A DNA stretch of 62,682 bases from a bacterium. GTDB lineage: Bacteria > Patescibacteriota > Microgenomatia > UBA1400 > UBA12108. The position numbers and the translations under genes were made by a program. This document shows positions 3,627 to 59,418 of the stretch, piece after piece. The DNA lies in the NCBI GenBank assembly GCA_021788365.1, contig JAJYKS010000006.1:1-62682 (forward strand). Reading direction: 5' to 3'. Below the pieces are notes generated by a model. That model ran no database searches. It was not told where the DNA came from and saw nothing but the letters and a program-made list of their open reading frames with translations. How positions within the stretch are numbered: position 1 is the first letter of the stretch; the number at the start of each line of letters is the position of its first letter.

Positions 3627-3670
3627 AAATTACATCACTAATAATCAAGAAATCCGCTATAATAAGCAAC

Positions 3671-4186
3671 ATGAAGTTTTACGCCATCAACCAATTTGTA
3701 AAAGGAACCGAGCTCCGTGTCGTGGACGAAACTGGCAAACAAATAGGCGTTATGAGCAAAACCGACGCCTTGGTTGAGGCCCAAAATCGCAATTTGGATC
3801 TAGTCGAAATCGCGCCTCTTGCCAAGCCTCCAGTTGCCAAGATTATAGATTTCAAGAAATTTAAGTATCTCGAGGCAAAAAAAGAGCGAGAGGGTCGCGC
3901 CAAAAGCGGCAAAGTAGAGCTTAAGGAAATCCGATTTACTCCATTTATTGCCACTGGTGATTTTGAGTCACGTGTAGGCCGCATGAAGGATATACTTGAG
4001 GATGGCGACCGAGTAAAGATTGTGGTAAAATTCACCGGTCGTCAAATCACGCACCCAGAGTTCGGACACGATCTTGTAAAAAAGATCCTGTCTTCACTTG
4101 AGGGAACAGCGGTTGCCGACGGAGTCGCAAAACTCCAAGGAAAGCAGTTGTTCTTGGTATTAAATCCGACCAAGAAGGCAAAATAA
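3671..4186 (+). CDS. infC: Translation initiation factor IF-3
   Basis: LRVVDETGKQIG, LDLVEIAP..PPVAKIIDFKKFKY, VELKEIRF; ATG 3671 is 7 nt after TATAAT. Confidence 0.97.
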   Translation: MKFYAINQFVKGTELRVVDETGKQIGVMSKTDALVEAQNRNLDLVEIAPLAKPPVAKIIDFKKFKYLEAKKEREGRAKSGKVELKEIRFTPFIATGDFESRVGRMKDILEDGDRVKIVVKFTGRQITHPEFGHDLVKKILSSLEGTAVADGVAKLQGKQLFLVLNPTKKAK

Positions 4187-4190
4187 ATCT

Positions 4191-4382
4191 ATGAAACGCA
4201 AAAGTAAGAAATCGCTGACAAAGCGAATCAAAGTGACAAAAAACGGTAAGATATTGCGTCGCACGCAGAACATGCGGCATCGCCGTTCACACAAGACTGC
4301 CGCCCAAGTCCGTCGTATGAAGGTAGTAAAAACCTTACACGGTCGCATTGCACGACGCGTAAAAAAGATTGTAGGAGCCTAG
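4191..4382 (+). CDS. rpmI: 50S ribosomal protein L35
   Basis: Basic 63 aa, KR.KVTKNGK..R, position in infC-rpmI-rplT. Confidence 0.93.
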   Translation: MKRKSKKSLTKRIKVTKNGKILRRTQNMRHRRSHKTAAQVRRMKVVKTLHGRIARRVKKIVGA

Positions 4383-4385
4383 AAT

Positions 4386-4739
4386 ATGACACGTGTTAAA
4401 AATAGCCCCACCAAACGTGCGCGCCACCACAAGGTGTTTGCACGAACCCGTGGGTTCCGCATGACCAAAAATCATCTGTGGAAAGTGGCACACGAAGCCT
4501 ACCTCCACGCCCTCGACTACTCCTTCCAAGGAAGGAAAGACCGCAAATCAGACATGAAATCACTCTGGATTGTGCGTCTCAATGCTGCACTTCGCGAGCT
4601 CGACCCCAAGTACACCTACAGTCGCTTTGTTGCCGATCTAAAAAAGAAAAACATCGTGCTCGATCGCAAGGTTTTGGCCGACGTCGCCGTTTCCGACACC
4701 CCAACTTTCAAGAAAATCGTCGAAGCAGCCTCAAAATAA
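4386..4739 (+). CDS. rplT: 50S ribosomal protein L20
   Basis: MTRVK, GRK.RK...KSLWIVRLNAA, YSRF..LKK.NI.LDRKVLAD. Confidence 0.98.
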   Translation: MTRVKNSPTKRARHHKVFARTRGFRMTKNHLWKVAHEAYLHALDYSFQGRKDRKSDMKSLWIVRLNAALRELDPKYTYSRFVADLKKKNIVLDRKVLADVAVSDTPTFKKIVEAASK

Positions 4740-4756
4740 TCCCATACATCGGGGTA

Positions 4757-4857
4757 TTGACAAAATTGCAGCCTGTAGTGTACTATGTGCGTCTTGCGAG
4801 AAGCAACCACTCCGGCAGCTATTGTATATATAGACTTGCCTACGAGAGGTTGCTTTT
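4757..4857 (+). ncRNA. Candidate small structured RNA (promoter followed by rod hairpin ending in U-run)
   Basis: TTGACA 4757-4762, 18 bp, TACTAT 4781-4786; hairpin AAGCAACC (4801-08)/GGTTGCTT (4848-55) with inner CTC/GAG, GGCA/TGCC, CTAT/ATAG; no ORF. Confidence 0.4.
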
Positions 4858-4875: not shown

Positions 4876-4905
4876 TTGACAGGAAACAGTAACACGTAGT
4901 ATCCT
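4876..4905 (+). promoter_or_regulatory. Promoter of the pheST leader
   Basis: TTGACA 4876-4881, 18 bp, TATCCT 4900-4905, 8 nt before the leader ATG. Confidence 0.6.
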
Positions 4906-4913
4906 CTCCCCAC

Positions 4914-4958
4914 ATGAGTCACAAAGAAAATTTATTTTTCTTTTTTACCACCAGCTAA
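4914..4958 (+). CDS. Phe-rich attenuator leader peptide MSHKENLFFFFTTS (pheM-like)
   Basis: 14-codon ORF with four consecutive Phe codons (4935-4946) upstream of pheST attenuator hairpins. Confidence 0.9.
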   Translation: MSHKENLFFFFTTS

Positions 4959-5006: not shown

Positions 5007-5034
5007 GTGAGCACAAGATGTTACAATGAAACCT

Positions 5035-6039
5035 ATGCAAAACAAGATTGATACAATTAAAAATACCTTCATCGCAGACCTGGTTGCAGCAGCAACGCTC
5101 GAAGCTCTAGAAGCGATCCGAATAAAGTACCTCGGCAAATCGAAAGGGGAGACAACGCTTCTCCTCAAGGAATTACAATCGCTCTCACTCGACGATAAAA
5201 AGCACTATGGCCCCCTCCTCAACCAACTAAAGCACTATCAAGAGTCAGAACTAGAAAATAAATATAAAATACTAAATAGCGAAATAAAAAATGAAACAGA
5301 CCTCACTATTCCCGGCACTCCCCGTCCAGTCGGCCACCTACACCCCACCTCAGTTGTCATCCGAGAAATGAACGAATTCTTCCGCTACCACGGTTTCTCC
5401 ATAGGAGAAGGGCCTGAAATTGAAAATGCTGACTACAATTTCCGACGCTTAAATTTGCCGGAAGGGCATCCTGCGACAGATCTCCAGGACACACTCTTTA
5501 TCAAAGAGCCAGATATACTGCTGCGCACACACACCTCATCGGTAGAAACGCGCATACTTTCGGCGTACCACGACAAGCTACCCCTACGAGTCGTAGTCCC
5601 CGGCAAGTGCTACCGCAACGAGACAGGCAATGCCACCAACAATAGCTTCTTCTACCAATATCAAGGATTCGTTGTAGACAAGGGGATCACCATCCAGCAT
5701 CTAAAAGACGTCCTCACCAAATTCCACCAATTCTTGTTCGGCAAAGATGTAGTGCTACGCTTCCGCTACAAATACTACCCCGAGGTTTCTCCCGGTATGG
5801 GCGTCGACATGCAGTGCCAATTCTGCAAAGGGGTGGGGTGCGGCGTGTGTAAATATCGCGGCTATATCGAGGTTTTGGGGAGCGGCATGATCCACTACAA
5901 CACGCTTCTAGCTTGTGGTATCGATCCTGACATCTACACCGGTTTCGCCTGGGGCATGGGTTTAGACCGCCTCGTCATGAGTAAATTCGGTATCACTGAT
6001 ATTAGGAAACTTTATAGCGGAGATATCGTCTACCTATGA
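5035..6039 (+). CDS. pheS: Phenylalanyl-tRNA synthetase alpha subunit
   Basis: GHLHP, HPATDLQDT, LLRTHTSS, PGKCYRN, GFAWGMGLDRL; start 5035 (5026 alternative). Confidence 0.99.
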   Translation: MQNKIDTIKNTFIADLVAAATLEALEAIRIKYLGKSKGETTLLLKELQSLSLDDKKHYGPLLNQLKHYQESELENKYKILNSEIKNETDLTIPGTPRPVGHLHPTSVVIREMNEFFRYHGFSIGEGPEIENADYNFRRLNLPEGHPATDLQDTLFIKEPDILLRTHTSSVETRILSAYHDKLPLRVVVPGKCYRNETGNATNNSFFYQYQGFVVDKGITIQHLKDVLTKFHQFLFGKDVVLRFRYKYYPEVSPGMGVDMQCQFCKGVGCGVCKYRGYIEVLGSGMIHYNTLLACGIDPDIYTGFAWGMGLDRLVMSKFGITDIRKLYSGDIVYL

Positions 6040-7887: not shown

Positions 7888-10509
7888 CTAAGGAGTAGGT
7901 GAAGGAGAGGGGGATGGCGAGGGGCTCAGAGTAGGTGTGGGCGATGGCGATGGAGTGGGGGTGGGTGATGGCGAGGCGTCCCAGTTAGTTTGCACCCCAA
8001 CGTGAATAATTGTTTCTGCATCAGTGTTATCTTTCGTATGCACATGTGCCTTAAGTTCATACGTCCCCTTGGCGAGACTAGGCGCAGTCGTCGACACCAC
8101 CTTTTGCCCGTTGAATACTTCCCACTTCGTGCCGTTTATATAGGTAGTAATTGTATCGACATCCGAATTTGTACCCACGGTGATGTGTACGGGGAAATTA
8201 GACGCAAGGTTAGAGTCTTGATTGTGTGGTGAATCAAAGCCAATGGTTACGTCACTCGTGCTCCCACAGTATTGTGTCGGCACCTGATATCGGGGATCAG
8301 TCTGAGTTGCTAACCACCCCGGAATATCAGACTGCCACAACGGGTTATCATCTTTTGCCACAATAAACTCTTGGTTGTCATAGTAGTTGCGTGCCACATC
8401 CGCATCGTTCGCAAGCTTCGTGTGATCGCTCTTGCAAACTTTAACATTGGTATGCACTGGGTCGGGAGCTGTCGGTACGGTACCCTGGATAAAGTAATCT
8501 TGGCGAGAAGGGAACCCATCATGAGCAGGATACCCAGAGATTGCGTCAACATCTTGTTGCACAATATCTGATGGCTGGGTGAACTGATCACCCTTGTAGA
8601 GATCCCAAGCCTTTTGCATGATATAGCGCCATATCGGTGAAGCACCAGTCACTCCAGAGGCCACCTGTGTCATGGGCGAGTTATCGTTGTTGCCCACCCA
8701 CACGCCGACGACAGCGTTGGTACTCCAGCCAATAGTCCAGTTATCACGTTTGTCGTTGGTAGTACCGGTCTTCACAGCAATAGGTAGCCCATTCATATTG
8801 AGATAGCTATTTGGACCAAACGTAAGGAGCCGCGCGTTATTATCCGATAAAACGTTGTCGATAAGAAACGCCACTTCAGGCGATACGACTTGATCGCGTT
8901 TTCCAGGATTAGCCTGGTATATGGTCTTGCCATCTTTTTCCACTTTAAGTATAGAAATCGGGTCTACTTTATCGCCACCATTGGCAAAAGCGCTATAGGC
9001 ATGCACCAAGTCAAAGAGTCGTACTTCGCCACCACCCAAAGTCACCGAAAGACCAAGTCGAGACAAATTTGCCGCGGTGGGCTGCAGTGAATCAAACCCC
9101 ATTTGGTAGGCAAACGCCATCATGTTCTTAAGCCCCACCATGTCCAGAAGCTTTACCGCCGGAATATTGAGAGAGGATGCAAGCGAATAGCGGAGTTGCA
9201 CCGGTCCGTGATACTTGCCGTCATAGTTACCTGGCTCATAAAACTGATCGGATGTCGCACCGGGGAACTTCGTCGGCACGTCCCATACCATGGTAGCCGG
9301 AGAGTAGCCCTTAGAGAACGCCGCAGCGTACGTCACCGGTTTAATAGACGACCCTGGCTGCCGCAAGGACATGACCACATTTACCTGCCCATCGTAGTCC
9401 TTGGCAAAATAATCCTTGGAACCAACCATGGCCAGTATCTCCCCCGTCTGGGGATTCATAACCATCGCTGCCCCGTTACCAATATGGTATTTTGCCACTT
9501 TTGCCACCTCGGTAGCGACTGTCTGCTGGGCAAAGTCTTGTAACGTGGAGTCGAGCGTTGTAGTTACCGTATAGCCACCAGCAGAAACAAAGTTCTCGCC
9601 GAACATGGACACGAGTTGATCTTTTACATAAAAGACAAAGTGGGGTGCCTTTATCGAGACATCTTGCGGCTGAAACTGCACTAAGGGCAGTGCTTTCTCG
9701 GCATCACTTTCCTGCTGGGCGGTAATATATCCATTCGACTGCATAGCCTTAAGTACAGCTGTTGCACGGGCTACATACGCCTTGGGATTGCTACCATAGG
9801 GCGAGTAGAGTGACGGCGCCTGGGGCATACCAGCGAGGATTACCGCCTGCACGAGGTTTAGGTCTTTAGGTGCGACACCAAAATATTTCTGCGACGCCGC
9901 ACCGATTCCAACCGCTGTACCACCATACGGAACATCATTCAGGTACATTTGTAGGATCTGATCTTTCGTAAATTTACGCTCAATCTCGATCGCCAAGACA
10001 AGTTCCTTGAACTTGCGAACAAGCGTCCGATCATTGGTCAAAAGTTGATTTTTTACGAGCTGTTGGGTGAGAGTAGAACCACCCTCAGCACGCCCAGAAG
10101 TAAAAAGGCGAGAAAATCCGCGGAGGATACCGAGTACATCGTATCCAGGATGTGTATAAAAGTTCTTATCCTCGATAGATATCGTAGCTTCTCTAAGATA
10201 TACGGGAATATCAGAAAACGGGACAAAAACCTGATCATATTTCTGATAAAGATCGTACAAGGTATTGCCATTACGATCGAGTATTTTTGTAGAATAACCC
10301 CCTTGCTGTACCACCGTATCCGGATTGGGAAGGTACCGAGCGTAGTAGGCAAACATGCCAACAAACAAGAAAATCCCCAGAATCGTTGCAACGAGTGCAC
10401 CGAGCCCGAGATACTTTAGAAGATGTGCCCTGTCAAAATGTAGCTGCAGATGGAACTTCCCTCGCCTCCGCTCCCGTCTACTTTTCCACGTGTTAGCCCA
10501 ATCCTGCAT
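7888..10509 (-). CDS. Bifunctional penicillin-binding protein 1A family (GT51 + transpeptidase, C-terminal Ig-like domain and Pro/Ser/Thr tail)
   Basis: IEDKNFY.HPG, GGSTLTQQLVKN, RQPGSSIKP, SLN, KTGT; ATG 10509 is 7 nt after TATACT. Confidence 0.95.
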   Translation of the reverse strand: MQDWANTWKSRRERRRGKFHLQLHFDRAHLLKYLGLGALVATILGIFLFVGMFAYYARYLPNPDTVVQQGGYSTKILDRNGNTLYDLYQKYDQVFVPFSDIPVYLREATISIEDKNFYTHPGYDVLGILRGFSRLFTSGRAEGGSTLTQQLVKNQLLTNDRTLVRKFKELVLAIEIERKFTKDQILQMYLNDVPYGGTAVGIGAASQKYFGVAPKDLNLVQAVILAGMPQAPSLYSPYGSNPKAYVARATAVLKAMQSNGYITAQQESDAEKALPLVQFQPQDVSIKAPHFVFYVKDQLVSMFGENFVSAGGYTVTTTLDSTLQDFAQQTVATEVAKVAKYHIGNGAAMVMNPQTGEILAMVGSKDYFAKDYDGQVNVVMSLRQPGSSIKPVTYAAAFSKGYSPATMVWDVPTKFPGATSDQFYEPGNYDGKYHGPVQLRYSLASSLNIPAVKLLDMVGLKNMMAFAYQMGFDSLQPTAANLSRLGLSVTLGGGEVRLFDLVHAYSAFANGGDKVDPISILKVEKDGKTIYQANPGKRDQVVSPEVAFLIDNVLSDNNARLLTFGPNSYLNMNGLPIAVKTGTTNDKRDNWTIGWSTNAVVGVWVGNNDNSPMTQVASGVTGASPIWRYIMQKAWDLYKGDQFTQPSDIVQQDVDAISGYPAHDGFPSRQDYFIQGTVPTAPDPVHTNVKVCKSDHTKLANDADVARNYYDNQEFIVAKDDNPLWQSDIPGWLATQTDPRYQVPTQYCGSTSDVTIGFDSPHNQDSNLASNFPVHITVGTNSDVDTITTYINGTKWEVFNGQKVVSTTAPSLAKGTYELKAHVHTKDNTDAETIIHVGVQTNWDASPSPTPTPSPSPTPTLSPSPSPSPSPTP

Positions 10510-10574
10510 ATAGCCGAGTATAGAGCAGGCTAGACCCGTAGACAACTCCCCCCAGGCTTTCTATAATGAACGGC

Positions 10575-11726
10575 ATGAATGATGACCTCTTAACCCGCCG
10601 TGTTGCCAAGATTCTCCCCTCAAAAGAGGGACTTGAAGCACTCATAAAATCGAAGAAAAAAATCAGGCTCTACCAGGGATTCGATCCCACCTTTTCTGCA
10701 CTTCACCTCGGTCATACCATCGGTTTTCGCAAGCTCATGGATTTTGCAAAAGCAGGGCATGAAGTTATATTTTTGTTCGGTACGGGAACAGTTTTGGCCG
10801 GTGACCCATCGGAAAGAGATACGGGACGTAAATTAATTACACAAGAAGAAATAGATGAAAATATTAAAACATGGAAAGAGCAAGTCAGCAAAATTGTAGA
10901 CTTTGATCTGGTAAAGATCAGGCAAAACGGCGACTGGCTCACCAAGCTAACACTCAAGGACATAATAAACATCGCCAGCAACATTAGCGCCGTACAGCTA
11001 TTCAAGCGAGAAATGTTTACACGCCGCATAGCTCATGGAGACACTGTCTGGTATCACGAAACCATGTACCCACTTCTCCAGGGGTACGACTCGGTCGCAA
11101 TGGACGTAGACCTCGAAGTTGGCGGCACTGACCAAGAATTTAACATGCTCATCGGCCGTGAGCTGCAGCACAAAATGAATAATCATGAAAAATTTGTATT
11201 AACAACACCGATGATCAACGGCACGGATGGGAAGAAAATGAGTAAATCGGTGGGAAACTGTATATTTTTGACAGAACCACCAGAGGATGTGTATCGCAAG
11301 ATCATGGCGATGCACGACGAAATGATTCCCACGTACTATGAACTTTTAACCGACATACCTATGGATGAAATTGCAGCCTTAGATCCCAGTAAGCCTGTTG
11401 AAAACAAAAAACGACTTGCGTACGACATCACCCGACAGCTACATGGGGTAGAAGGCGCTCAAACAGCCGCAAAATTCTATGACTCATATGTTCAAACAAA
11501 ATTAGCCCCAGAAGATTCACCAGAAGTTATCCTAAAATCGGGCACTCCACTCCTCGAAGCGCTGAAAAACGCAGACCTTGGGGTAAGTAATAGTGACATT
11601 AAGCGAACACTCGAGCAGGGCGGGGTAGAATTAGACGGGGTCAGGCTTTCCGATCCTGTATCAGAAATAAAGGCCGGCACCCTCAAATTTGGCAAGCGCA
11701 CATTCAGAAAAATTGTGGTTAAATAA
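10575..11726 (+). CDS. tyrS: Tyrosyl-tRNA synthetase
   Basis: GFDPT..LHLGH, YPLLQGYD, GGTDQEFN, KKMSKS, C-terminal S4 domain. Confidence 0.99.
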   Translation: MNDDLLTRRVAKILPSKEGLEALIKSKKKIRLYQGFDPTFSALHLGHTIGFRKLMDFAKAGHEVIFLFGTGTVLAGDPSERDTGRKLITQEEIDENIKTWKEQVSKIVDFDLVKIRQNGDWLTKLTLKDIINIASNISAVQLFKREMFTRRIAHGDTVWYHETMYPLLQGYDSVAMDVDLEVGGTDQEFNMLIGRELQHKMNNHEKFVLTTPMINGTDGKKMSKSVGNCIFLTEPPEDVYRKIMAMHDEMIPTYYELLTDIPMDEIAALDPSKPVENKKRLAYDITRQLHGVEGAQTAAKFYDSYVQTKLAPEDSPEVILKSGTPLLEALKNADLGVSNSDIKRTLEQGGVELDGVRLSDPVSEIKAGTLKFGKRTFRKIVVK

Positions 11727-11838: not shown

Positions 11839-11853
11839 GTTACACTATTAGCT

Positions 11854-13773
11854 ATGGATCTTATTGACCTTCCCGGCATCGGCGAGAAAACTGCTGCCAC
11901 ACTACGGACACACGGCATCGAAACCGCAGAAGCACTTAGTCATTACTACCCACGCGCGTACCGCACCTACTATGCAACATCTGCCGATAAACTTCCGATA
12001 GGGGAATATGTTTCTCTAATAGGCACCATCTCCCGCCCCGTTTCTCACCACACGGGGCACGTGAGTACACAGGTTGCTACCTTTAAGGACGATGGGGGCT
12101 CGCTCACCCTCCGTTGGTTCAACGCTCCGTATATCGTCAGGTCACTCCGAGTGGATACCACGTACCAGGTGCGAGGCAAGGTGGAAATTTTTGCAGGCAA
12201 ACGCCAAATGGTAAATCCTGAAACCCACCTGATTACCGGAGAATCGCCTCAACCGTCTGACCAAATTGTGCCCGTTTATACCGCTATTGGCACGGTAAAA
12301 TCCGGGAACCTCCGCAAAATAGTCGCCGAGGCGCTTAAACTCGCTGTCACTGACCCGCTCACTACAAAAATTCGTACAACGTACGGCCTTGTCGACCTCG
12401 AAACCGCGCTCCATAACATCCATTTTCCAAAAGACAACGACTCACTCGAAGCTGCTATACACCGTCTCGGCTTCGACGAGCTCTACGCACTCCAAATGGA
12501 GTCGCTAAAATCCGCCGAACATACCCACCCAGCAACCAACCCAATTCACTGCGATATGGGGATACTCCAAAACTGGATTACAAGCCTTCCCTTTGTCCCC
12601 ACTACTGCCCAAACACGAAGCATCGATGAAATCCTCAAAGATCTCGGAAACGGGGTGGCCATGCACCGCCTACTCCAAGGAGAGGTAGGAAGCGGCAAGA
12701 CGCTCGTAGCCGCAGCAGCCGCACTCACCGTCAAGCTCGCCGGCAAACAAACACTGGTCATGGCACCCACCCAGATACTCGCCGAGCAGTTGCACACGTC
12801 GCTCACCAGCTTCCTCCAAGACGCCGCCTCCATCTCATTGGTCACCCACGACGTGCACGGCGATACGACTGCCGACATAGTCGTTGGAACGCAAGCGCTC
12901 CTACAAGAAAAACACACATTTAGCACAATTGGGCTTGTCATTGTAGACGAGCAGCACCGTTTCGGCGTCGTGCAAAGACTACTACTGACACGTTTCGCCC
13001 CCGCACCCCATTTCCTCATGATGACCGCCACACCCATCCCACGCTCACTGGCCATGACCAGCCTAACAGGGTTAGATGTTTCCCATCTCGACGAGCTGCC
13101 AAAGAACCGTGTCCCAGTGAAGACGTATTATGTTACAGAAGAAAAGCGCAAGAACGCCTTCGATTGGATAAAGCGGGAGATACAGAGCGGCAACCAAGCA
13201 TTTGTTGTAGCTCCAGTTATAGACGAAGCGGAAGACGAGGAGGGAAACGCCAAAAAATCGGTGACGCTCTTAGAAAAAGAATTGACCACCCTCCTACCCG
13301 GCATCTCAGTGGATGTTATGCACGGCCGTATGAAAGAGCACGAGAAAACGGAGCACCTGCGAATGTTCCGTGATTGTCATACGCAAGTACTCGTAGCCAC
13401 CTCGATGGTCGAGGTAGGGATCGATATTCCAACGGCAAATATTATGGTCATAGAAGACGCCGAGCGGTTCGGCCTAGCCCAGTTACACCAGCTCCGAGGC
13501 AGGGTAGGGCGTGGCGGAGCACAAGGTCATTGCTTGCTTTTTTCCAAAATGAAATCAGAAAAGTCTCGTGAACGACTCACATACTTCGTGCGCGAAACCG
13601 ACGGGGCAAAGCTCGCAGAATATGATTTACGCACCCGCGGACCTGGCCAACTCTTTGGCCTAGTCCAGCATGGCTTCTTCTCCCTCCGTTTTGCCTCACT
13701 CTTTGACGAGCGTTTGCTCGAAGAAACTCATGCTGCCGCGCTTAGTGTTGCCAAATCGTCCATTTCCCCCTAA
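11854..13773 (+). CDS. recG: ATP-dependent DNA helicase RecG
   Basis: RLLQGEVGSGKT, DEQHRFGV, MTATPIPRSL, RFGLAQLHQLRGRVGRG. Confidence 0.98.
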   Translation: MDLIDLPGIGEKTAATLRTHGIETAEALSHYYPRAYRTYYATSADKLPIGEYVSLIGTISRPVSHHTGHVSTQVATFKDDGGSLTLRWFNAPYIVRSLRVDTTYQVRGKVEIFAGKRQMVNPETHLITGESPQPSDQIVPVYTAIGTVKSGNLRKIVAEALKLAVTDPLTTKIRTTYGLVDLETALHNIHFPKDNDSLEAAIHRLGFDELYALQMESLKSAEHTHPATNPIHCDMGILQNWITSLPFVPTTAQTRSIDEILKDLGNGVAMHRLLQGEVGSGKTLVAAAAALTVKLAGKQTLVMAPTQILAEQLHTSLTSFLQDAASISLVTHDVHGDTTADIVVGTQALLQEKHTFSTIGLVIVDEQHRFGVVQRLLLTRFAPAPHFLMMTATPIPRSLAMTSLTGLDVSHLDELPKNRVPVKTYYVTEEKRKNAFDWIKREIQSGNQAFVVAPVIDEAEDEEGNAKKSVTLLEKELTTLLPGISVDVMHGRMKEHEKTEHLRMFRDCHTQVLVATSMVEVGIDIPTANIMVIEDAERFGLAQLHQLRGRVGRGGAQGHCLLFSKMKSEKSRERLTYFVRETDGAKLAEYDLRTRGPGQLFGLVQHGFFSLRFASLFDERLLEETHAAALSVAKSSISP

Positions 13774-15052: not shown

Positions 15053-15066
15053 TAAAATACAAACCT

Positions 15067-15303
15067 ATGCTAAAAGTTAAGTTAAGTCGCATCGGGAAAA
15101 AAGGTCAACCGCAATACCGCATAGTCGTCGCCGAGGCTAGATCAAACATGGGCGGCGTCTACGTTGCAGAGATCGGCTACTACAACCCGCTCACCAGTCC
15201 TCACACCTGGCAGCTGGATAAGGCAGCCTACGCGGCATGGCTCAAAAAAGGCGCCCAACCTACCGATACAGTCCGTAAATTAGCCGCAAGGGCCGCCAAG
15301 TAA
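15067..15303 (+). CDS. rpsP: 30S ribosomal protein S16
   Basis: MLKVKLSRIGKK.QP.YRIVVA, GAQPTDTV. Confidence 0.97.
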   Translation: MLKVKLSRIGKKGQPQYRIVVAEARSNMGGVYVAEIGYYNPLTSPHTWQLDKAAYAAWLKKGAQPTDTVRKLAARAAK

Positions 15304-18898: not shown

Positions 18899-18954
18899 AT
18901 AGCTCTATCAAATCAGACTTGACCGCGCCAGTCAAATTCTTCATACTGACGGTA

Positions 18955-20840: not shown

Positions 20841-20877
20841 CTTGCGCTTTCCTCTGTTTTTCTCCATACTATTCCCA

Positions 20878-40700: not shown

Positions 40701-40710
40701 AAGTTGTTGC

Positions 40711-45448: not shown

Positions 45449-45471
45449 ACCTTCATTTTACATCAATCTCT

Positions 45472-46240: not shown

Positions 46241-47190
46241 AACAAGTCTTGTGCGTCTGTCCCGACTGTAACGACTATTTGCGCCCGATACTGGTCGGTC
46301 GAACCTATTCTAACGTTGGTAAATCCAAACAACGATTTCATAATAACAAGTATCGAGTCGATTTCCCTGGTATGTGACGATATAGTGACGACGGTGCTCG
46401 TCGCGTCGAGAGTACCCGAGCGTACTGCGACAACATCGAGACCTATGTTGGTAAGGAAATCAGCCACATCATTACCCAATCCATTTAGGCCACTGTCGTT
46501 GACAACAGCAACAGTCACCCCCTCGCTCCCCACGCCCCAATCGAACAATCGAGTTCCAACATATTGTTGTAAACGCTCGGGGTGGTACAAATAATCTGCT
46601 CCACGCTGCTCAAAAACCCCTGCACGTACGAGATCATCCACCGTCGCCACTTTCCAGAGATAGCTATAGGCACGGGTAAGAAGAACAGCACTATCTAGTC
46701 TAGAGAGGTTTGTTTTCTTCTGCAAAAATGCATTCCATAAACCACGCTGCAGGTCACTCGCGGTGGTTTCAGCAACACCGGTCACGAGGTAACCCGGTAT
46801 CGGCACTTTCATAAATCCCTGCACTTTACGTCGGGTAAACTCTCCCCCACTCCCTCCACCGTACGAACCCAATGAATAGAGTGCCCCCATCCGATACTCA
46901 CCAACAGATCGAGAACGGATAGACAGATTTGACGGAAACGGAAGCACAAAAACACGACGAAGCACTGGGTCAAACGAAAGAAAGTCCACCTGGCCACCAG
47001 CTCCCACCTCGATCATGTTGAAGCGATGCGGGTTGCCAAACACGAGTGACCGTCGCGCCTCCTGATATACCCATCCAGCAAGACACATAAAAAGGAGTAA
47101 AACTCCGGCAACGAAGCCATAGGTTATACGCGGATCACGCGGGATCTGCACCCGCTCACGCCGCTCACGTCTACCACCCCGTCCCATCAT
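46237..47190 (-). CDS. Membrane-anchored protein with LytR C-terminal domain
   Basis: VAVVNDSG..GLGN.VA..L...G, IVVTVG.D. Confidence 0.8.
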   Translation of the reverse strand: MMGRGGRRERRERVQIPRDPRITYGFVAGVLLLFMCLAGWVYQEARRSLVFGNPHRFNMIEVGAGGQVDFLSFDPVLRRVFVLPFPSNLSIRSRSVGEYRMGALYSLGSYGGGSGGEFTRRKVQGFMKVPIPGYLVTGVAETTASDLQRGLWNAFLQKKTNLSRLDSAVLLTRAYSYLWKVATVDDLVRAGVFEQRGADYLYHPERLQQYVGTRLFDWGVGSEGVTVAVVNDSGLNGLGNDVADFLTNIGLDVVAVRSGTLDATSTVVTISSHTREIDSILVIMKSLFGFTNVRIGSTDQYRAQIVVTVGTDAQDLF

Positions 47191-47237
47191 CCTTCCATGC
47201 TACCACGTAGAGAGCGTATGGCGTACAATGAGTGGCC

Positions 47238-48371
47238 ATGTTGACACTAGACCAATTTCAGTACGATCTACCCACAAAGTGTATTGCCCAAGAACCCGCA
47301 CATCCGAGGGATCATGCCCGACTCATGCTTATACACCGACAAGAGGGTACCATTTCTCACCACCACGTTTATGACTTACCCTCACTGCTACCAAGCGGCT
47401 ACGACATAGTCGCCAACAATACCAAGGTTTTCCCTGCCCGTTTGCGCGGGACAAAAGCGACAGGTGGCCAGGTCGAAATACTCTTACTCGCTCCACTCGG
47501 CCACTCCCGCTACCACTGCCTGACCCGTCCGGGACTCAAAGTCGGTGACGTGGTCCAATTTGCAGCTACGGGAACTGTCCTTGAAAGGAATTCACGGCTG
47601 CAAGCCGAGAAGGGCTCGCCGGCAGACGAAAGGACAGTGCCCCAAGTATTATCCGGATCAATCACCCATCTTGAAAAAGATGGCATGGAACGCACGATCG
47701 CGTTTGACTGCAACGAGGGGGAATTAAAAGCAGCAATAGCCGAAGTCGGCACTATGCCGACACCACCATACATCAAGAAAATGGTAAAGAATCCCAACGA
47801 CTACCAGACTATTTACGCCAAATATGGTTTCTCCGCAGCAGCCCCCACCGCAGGCCTCCATTTCACCCCACAGCTATTGCAGAAACTAAAGCATGCCCAC
47901 CGCTGGGATGAGCTTACCTTAAATGTTGGGCTCGGCACTTTCCTTCCGGTAAAAACAGAGTATGTCACTGAGCACCCCATGCACAGCGAGTCATTTACCA
48001 TTTCTAGCTCTGCTGCTGCCGCCATGAATGCCTCACGCCGATCAGGTAATAGACGGCTAGTTGTAGGTACGACCACGCTCCGTGCCCTGGAATCTGCCGT
48101 CGACGAGTTGGGTAGTATTACACCTGTCAGTAAAAGCACCAAGATCTATATCTACCCACCCTATCGTTTTCGGGCGACCGATGCCTTGATGACAAATTTT
48201 CATCTTCCAGGGAGTACCCTCCTCATGCTCGTCTCTGCGTTCGTGAGCTACCCGCAGACGGATACCCACTTCACAAACTTCCACGATGCGCTGTTGGGGT
48301 ACGCCTACGCCGAAGCCGTGCGCCTGGGCTATCGCTTCTTCTCCTTTGGCGACGCCATGCTCATTCTGTAG
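47238..48371 (+). CDS. queA: S-adenosylmethionine:tRNA ribosyltransferase-isomerase QueA (with ~25-aa insertion)
   Basis: IAQEP, NNTKVFPARL, PPYI, YQTIYA, AAPTAGLHFT, FFSFGDAM. Confidence 0.98.
   Translation: MLTLDQFQYDLPTKCIAQEPAHPRDHARLMLIHRQEGTISHHHVYDLPSLLPSGYDIVANNTKVFPARLRGTKATGGQVEILLLAPLGHSRYHCLTRPGLKVGDVVQFAATGTVLERNSRLQAEKGSPADERTVPQVLSGSITHLEKDGMERTIAFDCNEGELKAAIAEVGTMPTPPYIKKMVKNPNDYQTIYAKYGFSAAAPTAGLHFTPQLLQKLKHAHRWDELTLNVGLGTFLPVKTEYVTEHPMHSESFTISSSAAAAMNASRRSGNRRLVVGTTTLRALESAVDELGSITPVSKSTKIYIYPPYRFRATDALMTNFHLPGSTLLMLVSAFVSYPQTDTHFTNFHDALLGYAYAEAVRLGYRFFSFGDAMLIL
47570..47642. repeat. Palindromic element inserted in frame in queA
   Basis: GGGAACTGTCCTT (47570-82)/AAGGACAGTGCCC (47630-42) 12/13 inverted repeat enclosing CGGCT-gca-AGCCG. 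Confidence 0.8.
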
Positions 48372-50597: not shown

Positions 50598-50648
50598 AGT
50601 CCCTCCACAGGCTTTACACTATACACTATTCACTTTACACTATTCCCT

Positions 50649-51113
50649 ATGCTTTCCATTTCCCACGCCGCAACCGGCGCTTTTATTGCAGTAAAGATTG
50701 GCAACCCACTCCTCGCGGTCCCGCTCATCCTCGCTTCGCACTACGTTGAAGATGCCGTTCCTCATTGGGACGCTGGTACTGGTTTATCCAAAGGCAAGAA
50801 GACACCAAAGGCAGCCTTCCGCGACGAAATTATAGACATTATCGTAGCCGGCATCATAGTTCTTATTCTGTTCCCCGTTCATATATCGTTAACTTCACCG
50901 CTTACCGCCCTACTCGCTGCCCCAGTCTGGGGAGCATTCTTTGGACTCCTCCCCGATTTTCTCGAAGCTCCCCGTAACTTCCTCAAATACGAGCCTCGCT
51001 GGCTCCGCCCTATAAACAAATTCCATGGCCGATTTCACCACTCGATCCCCAATGTTTGGGCCGGCCTCGCCCCCCAAGTACTCCTCCTCAGTCTCATCTG
51101 GGCGTTTCGGTAG
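50649..51113 (+). CDS. Putative membrane-bound metal-dependent hydrolase (YdjM-like)
   Basis: SHAATG, SHYVED..PHWD, LPDF, H..FHH. Confidence 0.6.
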   Translation: MLSISHAATGAFIAVKIGNPLLAVPLILASHYVEDAVPHWDAGTGLSKGKKTPKAAFRDEIIDIIVAGIIVLILFPVHISLTSPLTALLAAPVWGAFFGLLPDFLEAPRNFLKYEPRWLRPINKFHGRFHHSIPNVWAGLAPQVLLLSLIWAFR

Positions 51114-51351: not shown

Positions 51352-52665
51352 CTATCCCCTCGCGCGGTCTACGCCATAAAATCGTACGCGATCCCCACGG
51401 AATCGAAGGTCTATGGTGCGCAGAGCGCCATTACGATGTTTGGCTATATTGAGCTTCACATTTTCAAGATCCTCAGCATCCTCGCGATACAAGAACATGA
51501 CAACGTCCGCATCCTGCTCGATGCTACCCGACTCACGGAGGTCCGCCAGTTGTGGCGTACTCCCACTCCCACGGTGTTCGATCGCACGCGACAATTGCGA
51601 CAAAGCCAGAACCGGTATCTTTAGTTCGCGAGCCAAATTCTTCAAACCCTGCGATATCTCTGCCACTTCCTGCACGCGGTTTTCCAAATTGCGACCACGC
51701 ATAAGCTGGAGATAGTCCACTACAATAAGCCCTATCTCATGTTCTGATTTGAGGCGGCGAGCTTTGGTACGCATCTCAAGAACTGAAAGTCCTGGTGTGT
51801 CATCGATGTAAAGCGGTGCCTCGGCGAGAACGCCCATAGCATCCGAGAGCTTGCCAAAGTCTTCACTCGACAATTTTCCGGTTTTGAGACGCCATGCATC
51901 AATGTCTGCCTGTGATACTAGGAGGCGATCCACGAGCTCTTCTTTGCTCATTTCTAGCGCAAAAAATCCAACCCCTACCTTTGACACAGCACTTGCGTAT
52001 TGGGCTATGTTCAGGGCAAACGCTGTTTTCCCCATACCAGGACGCGCGGCGAGGATTATCAAGTTCGAGTCTTGCATCCCCGCGAGACAGTTGTCCAGAT
52101 CAGTAAATCCGGTTGCAACACCCCGCAAAGATCCAGATTTCTTCGACAGCTCATCGAGTCGATCAAAACTCTCCGCAAGTATCGATCGTAAGGGCGTAAA
52201 TCCTTGCTTCATCTGCTGCTGCGAAAGCCCAAACACCTTCTGCTCCGCGCTATCCAAAATGGTGCCAATTTCCGCCCCCTCATCAAACGACAATTCGATC
52301 ATGGCCGAACTATCGGCAATGAGTTTACGCCTGGTGTAATAGTCTCGAATGATCTCACCGTAATGCTTTATGTTTGCGGAACTGGGGACGCCCTCAGCGA
52401 GCGACGAAATGTATGACACGCCGCCGACTTTCTCGAGCAACTTCATTGTTTTTAATTTCTGGGGGAGTGTAACCAAGTCGATCGGCTCGCGACTCTCAAA
52501 AAGCGAGATCATGGCTCGATAGATATCACCATGACGATCCTGGTAAAAAAACTCAGGTAAGAGAAATTCAGATACCTGAACTATTGCGTCCTTATCGATG
52601 AGAATAGATCCAAGTACCGATACTTCTGCCTCATCACTATGCGGGGGGACTTTGTTTCCTGCCAT
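51352..52665 (-). CDS. dnaB: Replicative DNA helicase DnaB
   Basis: PPHS.EAE.SVLG, AARPGMGKT, VDYLQL, SQLSR, DLRESGSIEQDAD. Confidence 0.99.
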   Translation of the reverse strand: MAGNKVPPHSDEAEVSVLGSILIDKDAIVQVSEFLLPEFFYQDRHGDIYRAMISLFESREPIDLVTLPQKLKTMKLLEKVGGVSYISSLAEGVPSSANIKHYGEIIRDYYTRRKLIADSSAMIELSFDEGAEIGTILDSAEQKVFGLSQQQMKQGFTPLRSILAESFDRLDELSKKSGSLRGVATGFTDLDNCLAGMQDSNLIILAARPGMGKTAFALNIAQYASAVSKVGVGFFALEMSKEELVDRLLVSQADIDAWRLKTGKLSSEDFGKLSDAMGVLAEAPLYIDDTPGLSVLEMRTKARRLKSEHEIGLIVVDYLQLMRGRNLENRVQEVAEISQGLKNLARELKIPVLALSQLSRAIEHRGSGSTPQLADLRESGSIEQDADVVMFLYREDAEDLENVKLNIAKHRNGALRTIDLRFRGDRVRFYGVDRARG

Positions 52666-52731
52666 GCTCACATTTTACCGGAAAAACAGCACACCCAAAA
52701 CCGTGTACTATCTACCCGTACTATATACAAA

Positions 52732-53388
52732 TTACTCAAAGAGAATCACTTCAGTACTATCCGCGGGCAGGGATTGGGCGGTAATGGAGAGAGTCTTCAC
52801 GGTTCTCGATCCATGGCCATACGCTGCAACAAAGGTTTCAACACCCCCCACCTCGCCAAATGTCTTCTCGTCGTGGCGATCCGTACGATAGTGCATAGGC
52901 AACACATAGGTTGGCTCAATTTGCGCGGCAACGTCACCGGCCTGTTTTGCATCGATTGTATAAAACCCTCCCACCGGCACCATGAGGACGTCAACAGTGT
53001 CAAGCTCGTCCACAAGTTTTTCAGATAAGGGGTGCCCCAAATCACCAAGGTGTAACACCCGTAGGCCTTCGGCTTGCACAACATAAATAGTATTTGCCCC
53101 CCGCTCCGCACCTTCCTTAGCATCGTGATACGTCGGATAGCCAAATACCGATATACCCTCCACTTCATACTCCCCCGGCTCTTGGATCACAAACGGCTGG
53201 GGACGACGCGCAGTGCCAGACACCGCAGCAGCGTTATTATGATCCGAATGCTGGTGGGACAAGGTAACAATATCGGCAGAAACAGTCGGCATCTTAAGAG
53301 ATCCTATATTGCCATACGGATCCATAACCACCACACCTGTTTTTGTCTTTACGCGAAAACACGAGTGTCCGAGATAGCTAATTTCCAT
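52732..53388 (-). CDS. Metallo-beta-lactamase-fold hydrolase
   Basis: YLGHSCF, SHQHSDH, HLGDLGH, PMHY. Confidence 0.93.
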   Translation of the reverse strand: MEISYLGHSCFRVKTKTGVVVMDPYGNIGSLKMPTVSADIVTLSHQHSDHNNAAAVSGTARRPQPFVIQEPGEYEVEGISVFGYPTYHDAKEGAERGANTIYVVQAEGLRVLHLGDLGHPLSEKLVDELDTVDVLMVPVGGFYTIDAKQAGDVAAQIEPTYVLPMHYRTDRHDEKTFGEVGGVETFVAAYGHGSRTVKTLSITAQSLPADSTEVILFE

Positions 53389-53593
53389 ATTCCCTATATT
53401 ACCACACCGAGTTCACCCGACAGCGAAGTCGTATTAAAAAATAAATAAGGCACACACGAGCAGAGCAATTTTCAGCGCGGAACGTCGAACTGGTCCCTCC
53501 AGTAAGCTGTGAGCACTGCAAAATTGTGTCGCGAGTATGTACAACAACAACAAAGTCTTTACGATTCCCCCCTCTTGCGCTACACTCGCTCTA

Positions 53594-54031
53594 ATGAAAG
53601 TCCGCAAAGAAGCCACTGTAGCAGTCATTATAGGTCTCGTATTGGGACTTATTGTCGTCGGCGGGGTTGTGCGAGCTCGCCAAGCATTACAACAAATGCA
53701 AAAAGAAAATAGTGAAGCCTCTTCAGTTGGCCAAAGTGGTCCTACCCCTTTGGGAGCACCATCCGGCCTCTTCCTCACGATAGAGACTCCCGACAACTCC
53801 GTGTCAAAAGACGCTGCGCTTACGGTAAGTGGAAAGACGCTCGCCGGTACATATGTTGCCATTACCGGTGAAAAGGGCGAATATCTTATAGTGCCAAACA
53901 GTCTTGGTTCATTTAGTCAGGACGTGACGCTCGCTGGAGGCGCCAACACCATTACGATAACCGTCTACCAGGCAGACGGCACTCACGTTGCCAAAACACT
54001 TAATGCGGTATACACAACCGCGGGGTTGTGA
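53594..54031 (+). CDS. Membrane-anchored Ig-like domain protein
   Basis: TM helix, then TVSGKT...FS.DVTL..GANTITIT; ATG 7 nt after TACACT. Confidence 0.75.
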   Translation: MKVRKEATVAVIIGLVLGLIVVGGVVRARQALQQMQKENSEASSVGQSGPTPLGAPSGLFLTIETPDNSVSKDAALTVSGKTLAGTYVAITGEKGEYLIVPNSLGSFSQDVTLAGGANTITITVYQADGTHVAKTLNAVYTTAGL

Positions 54032-56287: not shown

Positions 56288-56934
56288 AAGAACTTCGTGC
56301 TTCTACCGCCTCATTAGTCGCCCCCCTTTATGCAGCTTGTTTTGGTGAGGGAAGTACGCCAGCGGAAGGTTGGGGAGAACGCGCTGCCTGCTGGGAAACA
56401 GGATGTCTCGAGGATGGGAAACAAAAAATTATTCCGTACGTAGAAGTTGGCACGCCTTGCCCGCAATGTGCAACTCCCATGACCGAGGCCTACCCCCTTG
56501 AGTGGACATCCAGATATATCAAGAGCGAACTTTCATATCCGGGAACAATCGCACTCTTAGGATATATTGATCGTATAGTTGCTGCTGCCTGGGCGTATGA
56601 GGGTGAGATTGGCACAATCGCAACAAGAAAATATCCCAACAATCCATCTATGGCGGCCAAAGTGGTAGCCACCTACGGCAGAGTCTGGCCTAAGGAATCC
56701 AAAACGTTCTATATTTCCGAAGTATTTGTATCACCGGATAAGCGTGGCAATAATTATGCTCAAGAACTTATCAATAAAATGCTAAGCCAGGCGCGATACC
56801 CCGTGACTAGCCGCACACTCGACACGTCACCAATGACCACAGTCTTTACCAAAGCGGGATTAAAGAAAATCCTCAGTGCAGGCAGTGATCCCGAAAATAA
56901 TTTACGTGTTTTCTACGCTAGCCCAAGAAACTAA
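56269..56934 (+). CDS. GNAT-family N-acetyltransferase with a Cys-rich insert
   Basis: YISEVFVSPDKRGNNYA acetyl-CoA motif A; CWETGC...CPQC. Confidence 0.8.
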   Translation: MSNLEIEELRASTASLVAPLYAACFGEGSTPAEGWGERAACWETGCLEDGKQKIIPYVEVGTPCPQCATPMTEAYPLEWTSRYIKSELSYPGTIALLGYIDRIVAAAWAYEGEIGTIATRKYPNNPSMAAKVVATYGRVWPKESKTFYISEVFVSPDKRGNNYAQELINKMLSQARYPVTSRTLDTSPMTTVFTKAGLKKILSAGSDPENNLRVFYASPRN

Positions 56935-56946
56935 AAGGAGGATATA

Positions 56947-58194
56947 ATGAAACCCATGCAAAAACAAAATTTACAGACACTCAAAGGTTTTCGCGATTTT
57001 CTCCCCCAGGAAAAGCGCATCCGCGACGTGGTCTCGGAAAAGATTCGCCGTACATTCGAGCGCTACGGCTTCGAGCCGCTCGAGACCCCAACGCTCGAGT
57101 ACGCCGACCTGCTGCTCGGTAAATACGGCAACGAGGCCGACAAGCTCGTCTACCGCTTCACCGACCGAGGCGGGCGTGACATCGCCCTTCGCTACGACCA
57201 GACGGTCCCGACAGCCCGCGTCCTCGCCCAAAACCAAGATAAACTGGGGGTTGGCTTCCGCCGCTACCAAATCCAAAATGTCTTCCGCGCCGACAAGCCA
57301 CAGAGGGGCCGCTACCGCGAATTCACCCAGTGCGACGCCGATATTTTTGGCATCTCGTCTCCCCTCGCCGACGCCGAGATCTTGGCCGTCTACTACAATA
57401 TTTACAAAGATCTTGGCCTATCCGACATAAAAATTTATTTAAATGATCGGGAAACTCTAATTACAACGCTCTCTCCCTTTACCACCTCTACGGTCGATGT
57501 TTTCTCGCTAATCCAGTCTATAGACAAGTTAGACAAAATGGACAGAAATAACGTAGAAGCAGAACTTGTCGAAAAAGGAATTACAGCACGTAACGCAACC
57601 ATGGTGCTGAACTCCATACTCAGCGCAACTGCAAGTGCAAGTCTTCTCGAAATAACGGTTGCTGCAGAGTACTTAGGAATTCCAAAAGAAGTGGTTGTTT
57701 TTAGTCCCACGCTCGCCCGCGGCCTCGACTACTACACCGGCATGATTTTCGAGGGCAAGGTTCCGGGAGAGTCCGGCTCGGTCGGCGGTGGCGGCCGCTA
57801 CGATCGTCTCATCGAAAGCATTGGTGGCCCCGCAATCCCCGCTGTCGGCTTCGGCCTAGGTTTCGATCGCACAGTCGAAGTGCTGGTCGCAAAAGGTCTG
57901 GTCACACCGAGCGCGGCAACTCGCGCCCTGGTCACCATCTTTGCCCCAAACCTACAGGATAAAGCCTTGCAAGCTGCCCGTGCGCTCCGCGAAGCCGGCG
58001 TAAATACCGAGCTCTACCCAGATAGTTCTGCCAAGCTCGAGAAACAGCTCAAATACGCGGACAAAAAAGGCATCCCCTACGCCATTGTGATCGGCGAGGA
58101 CGAGGCCGGGAAAGGCGTCGTCACGGTGAAGAACCTCGCCACGCGACAACAGCAAACGGTTTCGCTTGACGAAGCGGCAAGTCTCCTGCAATAG
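56947..58194 (+). CDS. hisS: Histidyl-tRNA synthetase
   Basis: KGFRDF, LRYDQTVP, GRYREFTQCD, RGLDYYTG, GFGLGFDR, KQLKYADK. Confidence 0.99.
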   Translation: MKPMQKQNLQTLKGFRDFLPQEKRIRDVVSEKIRRTFERYGFEPLETPTLEYADLLLGKYGNEADKLVYRFTDRGGRDIALRYDQTVPTARVLAQNQDKLGVGFRRYQIQNVFRADKPQRGRYREFTQCDADIFGISSPLADAEILAVYYNIYKDLGLSDIKIYLNDRETLITTLSPFTTSTVDVFSLIQSIDKLDKMDRNNVEAELVEKGITARNATMVLNSILSATASASLLEITVAAEYLGIPKEVVVFSPTLARGLDYYTGMIFEGKVPGESGSVGGGGRYDRLIESIGGPAIPAVGFGLGFDRTVEVLVAKGLVTPSAATRALVTIFAPNLQDKALQAARALREAGVNTELYPDSSAKLEKQLKYADKKGIPYAIVIGEDEAGKGVVTVKNLATRQQQTVSLDEAASLLQ

Positions 58195-58201
58195 TAAAAG
58201 G

Positions 58202-59125
58202 ATGTCTCGCTCCCGCCGCTTGGCCTATCTCGCCCTCGTGGTAAACGCAGTGATCTGGGGTGCCGCGTTCCCCATAATCAAGCCGTCACTTTCGTTTATC
58301 TCGCCGCTCCAGTATCTCTACCTTCGTTATCTGGTAGCGAGTATCTTCGGCATCCCTATCGTTGTCTATTTTTATATCAAAAGTAGACCAAAGATATCTT
58401 ATATCATCAAAGTATTACTTATAGAATCTATCCAACTCATCTCACTTCCCCTGCTCTACATCGGGCTCGCGAGAACAAGCGCGCTTGACGCCTCGCTTAT
58501 TGGAGCCACAGGACCAGTGTTTGTTGTCCTCGGTGGTTTTATCTTTCTCCATGAACACGAGCGTAAACGCGAGTGGCAGGGCATGGTTATCTCACTTTTA
58601 GGGTCAATTGCCCTTGTTGTAGGTCCACTCCTAGATGGCCATGGTTTTGACCCGGGATCCTTCTCTGGCAACACGGCAATCATTGCCTATAACGTACTCT
58701 ATACAGTCTACGCCCTGACCGCCAAACACTTTTACAAACAGCGCCCACCGCTATATCTTGGCTCGATAATTTATCTGTTGGCGTCCGTCATGTACGGCTC
58801 TTGGCTGTACATAGGTGGAACGCTACCCCCACTCACACTGCTTATGGCAAACCGTGAGGTAGCACTTGCTGTCTTCTACATGGGACTTCTCGGGTCACTC
58901 CTCGCCTTCGCGCTCTACTTGTATGGTCAAAGCAAAATAGAAGTATCGGAGGCAAACCTCTTTACATACCTAAACGGCGTCGTAGCAATACCCGCAGCTT
59001 TTCTTATTCTCGGCGAGCGCCCCACCTGGTACATGCTTGCGGCTATCGTTGTTGTGGCCTACGGGGTCTGGCGTGCAGAGACTCGCTCCCGCCGCACTTC
59101 TCGAAAAGCCAAAGTGCTGCTATAA
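58202..59125 (+). CDS. DMT/EamA-family transporter
   Basis: [10 protein letters not shown], 10 TM helices in two repeats, ILGER. Confidence 0.92.
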
Positions 59126-59133
59126 TTCTCCCC

Positions 59134-59418
59134 ATGAAAGCCAACATCCATCCAAAATATCAGACTGTTACAATAACCTGCAGTTGCGGCGCCAGTTTTA
59201 CGACCGGCAGTACCAAGGGTGATTTTCCAGTCGATATCTGCAGTAAATGCCACCCATTCTTCACCGGTGAGCAGCGCTTTGTCGACACGCTCGGCCGTGT
59301 TGAGCGTTTCAAGGCCAAACAAACCAGTGCTACAGGCAAAAAAGCTAAAAAAGACCGCAAAACCGCGCAGTCTGGTCCTCGCACACTTTCCGACATTCGC
59401 GCCGCGCAAGGCAAATAG
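59134..59418 (+). CDS. rpmE: 50S ribosomal protein L31
   Basis: [29 protein letters not shown]. Confidence 0.98.

Follow-up and report, generated by a model that had tools for sequence, protein, structure and literature searches.

Promoter boxes beside start codons suggest leaderless first genes in a Microgenomatia genome

In the stretch of DNA analysed here (the window; contig JAJYKS010000006.1 of assembly GCA_021788365.1, 62,682 nt, from an ultra-small bacterium of the Microgenomatia), many genes carry a TAnnnT hexamer 6 to 8 nt ahead of their ATG. This hexamer is very probably a promoter -10 box, placed so close to the gene that the first genes of transcription units would be expressed from leaderless mRNA. 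We infer both the transcript start at the ATG and the leaderless translation from the architecture of the sequence. The initial annotation had described the hexamer at about 20 genes and proposed that first genes are mostly translated in this way. Such a majority is borne out in the window, with the box at 13 of the 18 genes that have a divergent upstream neighbour, but not genome-wide, where the share is about half.

Position of the hexamer relative to start codons and unit heads

The window is one contig of a 26-contig assembly of 1.085 Mb with about 50% GC and an estimated completeness of 94.8%. Genes were called with a self-trained three-periodic Markov model, which yielded 918 genes that are complete at the 5' side. 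Their starts were set either blind to the motif, as the longest open reading frame (ORF) or by coding potential only, or by a model in which the motif helps the choice. Strict-pattern counts were compared with shifted-offset controls, and the motif-blind values are lower bounds. A start model trained by hard expectation-maximization returned classes of 401 leaderless genes and 517 genes with a Shine-Dalgarno (SD) site, which were rejected because the model had entirely absorbed the "no signal" class; blind lower bounds and strict counts are therefore given instead.

All 19 starts that the initial annotation had named by coordinate carry the hexamer where it was reported, two of them, at pilin genes, in the weaker form CATACT, with spacers of 6 to 8 nt between box and ATG. 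Boxes are also present at rpsP, pilD and the three leader-peptide ORFs (Table 1). TAnnnT begins at position -12, -13 or -14 relative to the start codon in 24 of the 64 genes called in the window, against 4 to 5 at control offsets. For the divergent genes, whose upstream neighbour marks them as certain heads of transcription units, the strict count at these positions compares with 0 to 3 in the control and rises to 16 of 18 when CATACT and weaker boxes are added by eye.

The enrichment at -12 to -14, proposed earlier as the check on this layout, is strong across the genome. With longest-ORF starts, the share of genes in which TAnnnT begins at a given position is 16-18% for -12 and 8-9% for -13, compared with about 2-3% at other upstream offsets and about 1% ahead of internal in-frame ATGs. 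Starts set by coding potential only place the hexamer at -12 or -13 in 22-24% of genes (5% at eight shifted offsets), and model-chosen starts place it at -12 to -14 in 37% of all genes (control 7.5%). The signal does not depend on annotation, as an ATG follows at offset 12 or 13 after 16% of the 375 TATAAT and after 7.7% of the 1,924 TGnTAnnnT motifs of the genome, with about 3% expected in each case. The choice of start codon is uninformative, ATG accounting for about 94-95% in every gene class.

The hexamer is concentrated at unit heads. Divergent genes with blind starts have TAnnnT at -12 or -13 in 32-37% of cases and those with model-chosen starts in 53%, or 59% with -14 included, against a control of 6-9%. 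Genes that follow a co-directional gene by 10 nt or less have the box in only 9-11% (blind) or 13% (model-chosen), with a control of 3%. Upstream of 504 likely heads, the longer pattern TGnTAnnnT occurs at offsets 12 (41 cases), 13 (23), 14 (12) and 15-17 (15), 91 in total. It is nearly absent at offsets 18-38, and further upstream it recurs at about one per nucleotide, of which about half is expected by chance. From this profile, about 60% of the extended -10 promoters that can be identified are close enough to the ATG for leaderless expression. The box also occurs at half of the genes whose distance to a preceding co-directional gene is 11-40 nt, so that many promoters would overlap the 3' end of their upstream neighbour.

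Genes inside operons commonly use SD motifs, in agreement with the initial annotation. SD 4-mers peak at -8 to -12, where they reach 5-9% per offset over a background of about 1%, and they occur in 23% of genes compared with 8% at a control position. Among co-directional genes in tight succession the rate is 27%, compared with 14% for divergent genes, and 71 gene pairs share an ATGA overlap. The tail of the 16S rRNA, the anti-SD check also raised earlier, is normal: the single 16S gene ends in an intact anti-SD sequence (GGATCACCTCCTTTCT), which is compatible with a mixed regime of leaderless and SD-led genes.

Table 1. Box and start codon of putative leaderless genes, and of hisS for contrast (nt, spacer between box and ATG)
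Feature	Coordinates	Strand	Box, spacer and start	Remarks
Thr leader ORF (MKLVIRITTTTTIR)	1640..1655	+	TATAAT at -13, 7 nt, ATG 1653	Upstream of thrS
infC (IF3)	3658..3673	+	TATAAT 3658-3663, 7 nt, ATG 3671	Pfam IF3_N from residue 6
Phe leader ORF (MSHKENLFFFFTTS)	4900..4916	+	TATCCT at -14, 8 nt, ATG 4914	TTGACA 18 nt upstream of box
pheS	5022..5037	+	TGtTACAAT, 7 nt, ATG 5035	GC hairpin and T run immediately upstream
PBP1A	10507..10522	-	TATACT, 7 nt, ATG 10509	Divergent from tyrS, 65-nt spacer
tyrS	10562..10577	+	TATAAT 10562-10567, 7 nt, ATG 10575	Earlier ATG 10566 inside box
recG	11841..11856	+	TACACT, 7 nt, ATG	RecG wedge from residue 8
rpsP (S16)	15053..15069	+	TGaTAAAAT, 8 nt, ATG 15067	
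Type IV pilin	18942..18957	+	Weak CATACT at -13, 7 nt, ATG	N_methyl motif at residues 2-26 supports start
Second pilin	20865..20880	+	Weak: CATACT at -13, TACTAT at -11, then ATG	
pilD (prepilin peptidase A24)	23168..23182	-	TACAAT, 6 nt, ATG 23170	Pfam domain from residue 12
pilB (T2SSE ATPase)	27954..27970	-	TAATAT, 8 nt, ATG	Divergent from holB, 62 nt
holB (DNA polymerase III delta')	28007..28021	+	TATAAT 28007-28012, 6 nt, ATG 28019	
NAGPA-like gene	37106..37122	-	TGaTACGCT, 8 nt, ATG	Divergent from gene at 37150, 41 nt
Serine hydrolase gene	37137..37152	+	TGcTAAAAT, 7 nt, ATG 37150	
Alpha/beta hydrolase gene	40629..40643	-	TATAAT, 6 nt, ATG 40631	
84-aa ORF	40699..40713	+	TAAAGT, 6 nt, ATG 40711	
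157-aa ORF	42115..42129	+	TATACT, 6 nt, ATG 42127	No Pfam match
yebC	45446..45460	-	TAAAAT, 6 nt, ATG 45448	YebC N domain from residue 5
LytR_C-domain gene	47188..47202	-	TGgTAGCAT, 6 nt, ATG 47190	Divergent from queA, 47 nt
queA	47224..47240	+	TACAAT, 8 nt, ATG 47238	Pfam domain from residue 4
154-aa ORF	50636..50651	+	TACACT, 7 nt, ATG 50649	
dnaB	52663..52677	-	TAAAAT, 6 nt, ATG 52665	DnaB N domain from residue 7
Metallo-beta-lactamase-fold gene	53386..53401	-	TGgTAATAT, 7 nt, ATG 53388	Domain from residue 2
145-aa ORF	53581..53596	+	TACACT, 7 nt, ATG 53594	
His leader ORF, 29 aa	54816..54832	+	TGcTATTAT at -14, 8 nt, ATG 54830	Heads hisS operon; TTGACA 16 nt upstream of box
hisS (contrast, ambiguous)	56931..56958	+	AAGGAGG 6 nt before ATG 56947; TATAAT 7 nt before ATG 56956	
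rpmE (L31)	59121..59136	+	TGcTATAAT (TATAAT 59121-59126), 7 nt, ATG 59134	Residues 1-62 match L31 profile 1-63
prfA (RF1)	59422..59436	+	TATACT, 6 nt, ATG	
HtrA-like protease gene	61663..61677	-	TGaTATATT, 6 nt, ATG	

The gene upstream of rpmE, for an EamA transporter, ends inside the TATAAT box of rpmE, with its TAA stop at 59123-59125. The sole RNA gene found in the window with Rfam and ARAGORN is a tRNA-Leu (CAA) at 51265-51350.

Promoter identity and proposed mechanism

The alignment of 294 strict matches on the hexamer, for which only TAnnnT was required, yields an interior of TAtAAT, the commonest forms being TATACT, TATAAT, TACAAT and TAAAAT. The positions upstream of the hexamer, which were not part of the search pattern, show T (48%), R, T (45%), G (64%) and n, giving a full consensus of TRTGnTAtAAT. 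The TG precedes 35.7% of the start-adjacent boxes, compared with 6.4% of TAnnnT hexamers genome-wide (p = 1e-49). The pooled logo of the 294 boxes shows no -35 element, and TTGACA-like matches (at least 4 of 6 positions) peak at a spacing of exactly 17 nt, with 31 cases over a background of about 12. At spacings of 16-18 nt they number 46 against 25 in the control for boxes without TG and 13 against 12 for boxes with TG. The restriction of the -35 excess to boxes without TG corresponds to textbook compensation between -35 and TG. The encoded RpoD, a complete primary sigma factor, has 439 residues and comprises regions 1.1, 1.2, 2, 3 and 4, and sigma region 3 is the part that contacts the TG of extended -10 promoters. 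The TRTGn extension, the 17-nt -35 spacing, the bias to unit heads and the phylogenetic footprints described below, none of them built into the search, speak for a sigma-70 extended -10 promoter element and against a translation signal.

The hexamer could instead act in translation, as an AT-rich non-SD ribosome binding site or an S1-binding site on a leadered mRNA whose transcription start site (TSS) lies further upstream, comparable to the Bacteroidota in group B of GeneMarkS-2. The element is indeed rich in A and T and positioned like a ribosome binding site, a bS1 protein with four S1 domains is encoded, and a T at -1 is frequent whatever the class of start, which also makes it unusable as a mark of the TSS. 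We nevertheless regard this explanation as improbable, given that the consensus is that of a sigma-70 extended -10 element with -35 compensation and that no stronger promoter motif appears at offsets 18-38. Group B motifs moreover precede all genes (PMC6028130), unlike the box, which is depleted inside operons. Divergent genes that are 17-30 nt apart are a further argument, as 7 of 9 such pairs, with motif-aided starts, have a box for each gene, and spacers of this length holding two boxes leave no room for leaders.

In divergent pairs 17-27 nt apart, found outside the window on contigs C1, C2, C14, C16 and C20 of the assembly, the two -10 boxes overlap on opposite strands. The palindrome AGTATATACT, which is two overlapping TATACT boxes, is common to two unrelated loci and lies there in a 23-nt spacer. 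Two polymerases would be unable to bind such boxes together, and the paired genes may therefore be expressed in a mutually exclusive manner.

If the hexamer is the promoter box that its consensus suggests, the unit heads would be served by housekeeping sigma-70 -10 elements, mostly of the extended type TRTGnTAtAAT, with little or no -35 contribution. At sigma-70 promoters, the first transcribed base lies 6-8 nt past the -10 hexamer. A box 6-8 nt from the ATG would therefore leave a leader of 0-2 nt at most. For spacers of 6-7 nt, the TSS would fall on the A of the ATG, and for spacers of 8-9 nt 1-2 nt earlier. The resulting mRNAs would have no 5' leader, no SD site and no pairing with the anti-SD, and ribosomes with initiator tRNA would bind the 5'-terminal AUG directly. 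This route may serve about 40-60% of transcription-unit heads, corresponding to 20-35% of all genes, while downstream operon genes would rely on SD pairing or on stop-start overlaps (ATGA) and a minority of heads would be leadered.

Components relevant to a leaderless route are present, namely IF3, whose own gene falls into the leaderless class, and the four-domain bS1. The bS1 gene itself is SD-led (GGAAAGGAG; locus L082, positions 840-861, contig C15), and rpoD, with TGgTATACT 22 nt before its ATG and no clear SD (locus L086, positions 354-384, contig C2), appears to be leadered. Membership of the leaderless class is thus mixed among the genes for transcription and translation factors, infC being inside it.

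Several points weigh against leaderless expression, or against its extent. The 8-9-nt spacers of rpsP, queA, pilB and some rpmE orthologues suggest leaders of about 1-3 nt, not strictly zero, and about one-third of the head genes have neither a box nor an SD. The upper estimates of 53-59% of heads rest on motif-aided starts, the blind lower bound being 32-37%. A pyrimidine at -1 is not specific to the box, occurring at 82-89% of box starts and 76-81% of others. No characterisation of TSS choice by a Patescibacteria RNA polymerase was found for this lineage in the literature. Two candidate leaderless starts beyond those of the initial annotation are doubtful: the one at pheT (6036) is probably a chance match, the gene having an ATGA overlap with pheS, and the one at hisS (56956) is probably false, with a perfect AAGGAGG before the ATG at 56947. 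At hisS the TATAAT overlaps the first ATG, and the two candidate starts, 56947 and 56956, are nine bases apart; as hisS is operon-internal, initiation at the SD-led ATG is more likely.

Start codons and conservation in the lineage

Boxes that are genuine promoters would still not give leaderless mRNAs if the true starts were further downstream and the supposed N-terminal codons were in fact short leaders. The starts come from our own crude model, and hisS (56947 or 56956) and tyrS (10566 or 10575) are ambiguous. We consider this about as improbable as a role of the hexamer in translation. When the proteins are read from the box-adjacent ATGs, their Pfam domains start between residues 1 and 12, the peak persists with motif-blind starts, and the ATGs and first residues of rpmE and tyrS are conserved among relatives. 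The Pfam boundaries and this conservation support the box-adjacent ATGs as the likely correct starts.

For rpmE, TG.TA.AAT is the only conserved block within the 60 nt upstream in 19 of 19 family genomes, whose L31 proteins are 58-77% identical to the present one. It always lies 6-9 nt from the ATG, and no SD is present in these 19 genomes. Among 11 order-level relatives the box is kept in 3, and one order-level locus has a TATAAT followed by a longer leader with AAGGA. The nearest tyrS relatives (at most 82% identity) belong to metagenome bins labelled Candidatus Woesebacteria or Microgenomates, and remoter ones to Beckwithbacteria, Chisholmbacteria, Curtissbacteria and other Patescibacteria. 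TAnnnT at -12 to -14 is kept ahead of tyrS in 33 of 57 relatives, as far as Peribacteria-labelled bins. In five close relatives, tyrS instead has TACAAT about 25 nt upstream of the ATG, and a leader of about 8-10 nt containing AGGAG (gaTACAATacaAGGAGttatATG) takes the place of the leaderless layout. The switches seen at the tyrS and rpmE orthologues suggest that leaderless and SD-led modes interconvert.

The distribution of the layout was surveyed by whole-genome counts of TGnTAnnnT-N6-ATG, with the reversed pattern and a phase-matched N12 spacing as controls. The present genome has 91 matches (reversed 37, N12 30), and the 31 family and order genomes, made up of the present one and 30 relatives, have 2453 (reversed 682, N12 679), a 3.6-fold excess over N12. 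A phylum-wide sample of 151 genomes has 7541 (reversed 3343, N12 3760), about 2-fold over N12. Escherichia coli K-12, compared with the reversed pattern alone, has 72 against 68 (1.06x). Over the 151 genomes the N6/N12 ratio has a median of 1.98; it is at least 2 in 74 of them, and p < 0.01 is reached in 84. A spacing control of N11 was dropped as misleading (median N6/N11 of 1.13). In many genomes the N11 counts are inflated compared with those for N12 and for the reversed pattern, likely because TAN is out of frame with the ATG there, while at N6 and N12 it is in frame and depleted in coding DNA, so that spacing controls must be phase-matched. The N12 control gives results like those of the reversed pattern.

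The ratio is below 1.2 in 21 of the 151 genomes, including all six members (0.9-1.6 Mb) of one family, which show no excess (251 matches against 240 for N12). A few families represented by a single genome likewise have no N6 excess. The result for the six-genome family could reflect a lineage-specific loss or a different promoter geometry. Judged by these motif counts, the box-ATG trait is strong within the family and order; across the phylum it is widespread without being universal.

A chance effect of composition in A/T-rich intergenic DNA beside ATGs is left with next to no probability by the positional controls. TAnnnT is loosely defined and occurs 30,146 times in the genome, but its excess at -12 and -13 is 4- to 5-fold over adjacent offsets in the same intergenic DNA. 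Counts for the reversed pattern and for N12 are lower by a factor of 3, an excess is absent from E. coli, and the footprint is conserved in relatives.

Relation to known leaderless systems and significance

The layout resembles group C of the GeneMarkS-2 classification, in which the leading genes of operons have a Pribnow box at a distance of 6-8 nt and the other genes use SD sites (PMC6028130). Between 25 and 50% of operons are predicted to be leaderless in this group, which is typical of Actinobacteria (Mycobacterium tuberculosis) and Deinococcus-Thermus (Deinococcus deserti) (PMC6028130). The genome described here shares the distance of the box at first genes, the use of SD by internal genes and the retained anti-SD, and the predicted leaderless share of 40-60% of heads is similar. 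It differs from the group C examples in its lineage, being a Woesebacteria-like member of the Microgenomates within the Patescibacteria, or Candidate Phyla Radiation (CPR), with 1.1 Mb and about 50% GC, and in its marked TRTGn extension with almost no -35. D. deserti and M. tuberculosis also differ in having TSS and N-terminal data. The genome does not fit group B, with its non-SD ribosome binding site before all genes, because the box falls to 9-13% at tightly spaced co-directional genes, which have SD sites instead. The archaeal group D likewise combines leaderless first genes with SD-led internal genes, but its promoter is a TATA box with a B recognition element about 26 nt upstream, whereas here a bacterial -10 box lies 6-8 nt upstream (PMC6028130).

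The T-R-T-G-n just upstream of TATAAT, and a -35 that is dispensable where TG is present, are also features of the extended -10 promoters of Gram-positive bacteria such as Bacillus subtilis. In B. subtilis, these sigma-A promoters (TGn or TRTGn, the "-16 region") normally give leadered, SD-dependent mRNAs, while those described here abut the start codon. Individual leaderless mRNAs known from E. coli and from phages of this species, such as lambda cI and the tetR of Tn1721, begin with a 5'-terminal AUG and are free of SD, and their initiation is sensitive to IF3 and independent of bS1. Recognition of a 5'-terminal AUG without SD would be common to these mRNAs and the genes described here. The E. 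coli and phage examples are rare exceptions in their genomes, whereas here no other layout is as common at unit heads, and it extends to the core genes infC, tyrS, pheS, dnaB, prfA, rpmE and rpsP.

The main text of the GeneMarkS-2 paper does not mention the Patescibacteria or CPR lineage (PMC6028130), and a paper on CPR ribosomes reports a shortened bS1 and the loss of the anti-SD in some Parcubacteria and leaves leaderless genes unmentioned (PMC9297842). Full-text literature searches turned up no report of leaderless genes in Patescibacteria. The kind of layout is already known, as group C, and the lineage is new to the searched literature.

A wider proposal, which we put forward tentatively, is that leaderless expression from -35-less extended -10 promoters is the default for unit heads across the Microgenomates and in about half of the Patescibacteria families, lost in some, and includes the overlapping bidirectional boxes in 17-27-nt spacers such as AGTATATACT. 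If true, the CPR would be the largest bacterial radiation to run mainly on leaderless mRNAs, and the leaderless mode would be linked to the reduced ribosomes of these organisms, with their four-domain bS1 and missing uL30 and bL9. The layout of the present genome itself suggests an economy on 5' untranslated regions in minimal cells and predicts a translation tuned to 5'-terminal AUGs despite an intact SD machinery.

There are practical consequences as well. Start calling in CPR metagenome bins is mostly SD-based, and if at least one-third of the genes are leaderless, many N-termini and "intergenic" regions would be mis-set; tyrS and hisS illustrate the ambiguity. The simple promoter definition TRTGnTAtAAT-N6/7-ATG may be usable for engineering the few cultivable relatives. 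Finally, the Patescibacteria would join Actinobacteria and Deinococcus-Thermus as the third large bacterial lineage to bear on the debate over an ancestral origin of leaderless initiation.

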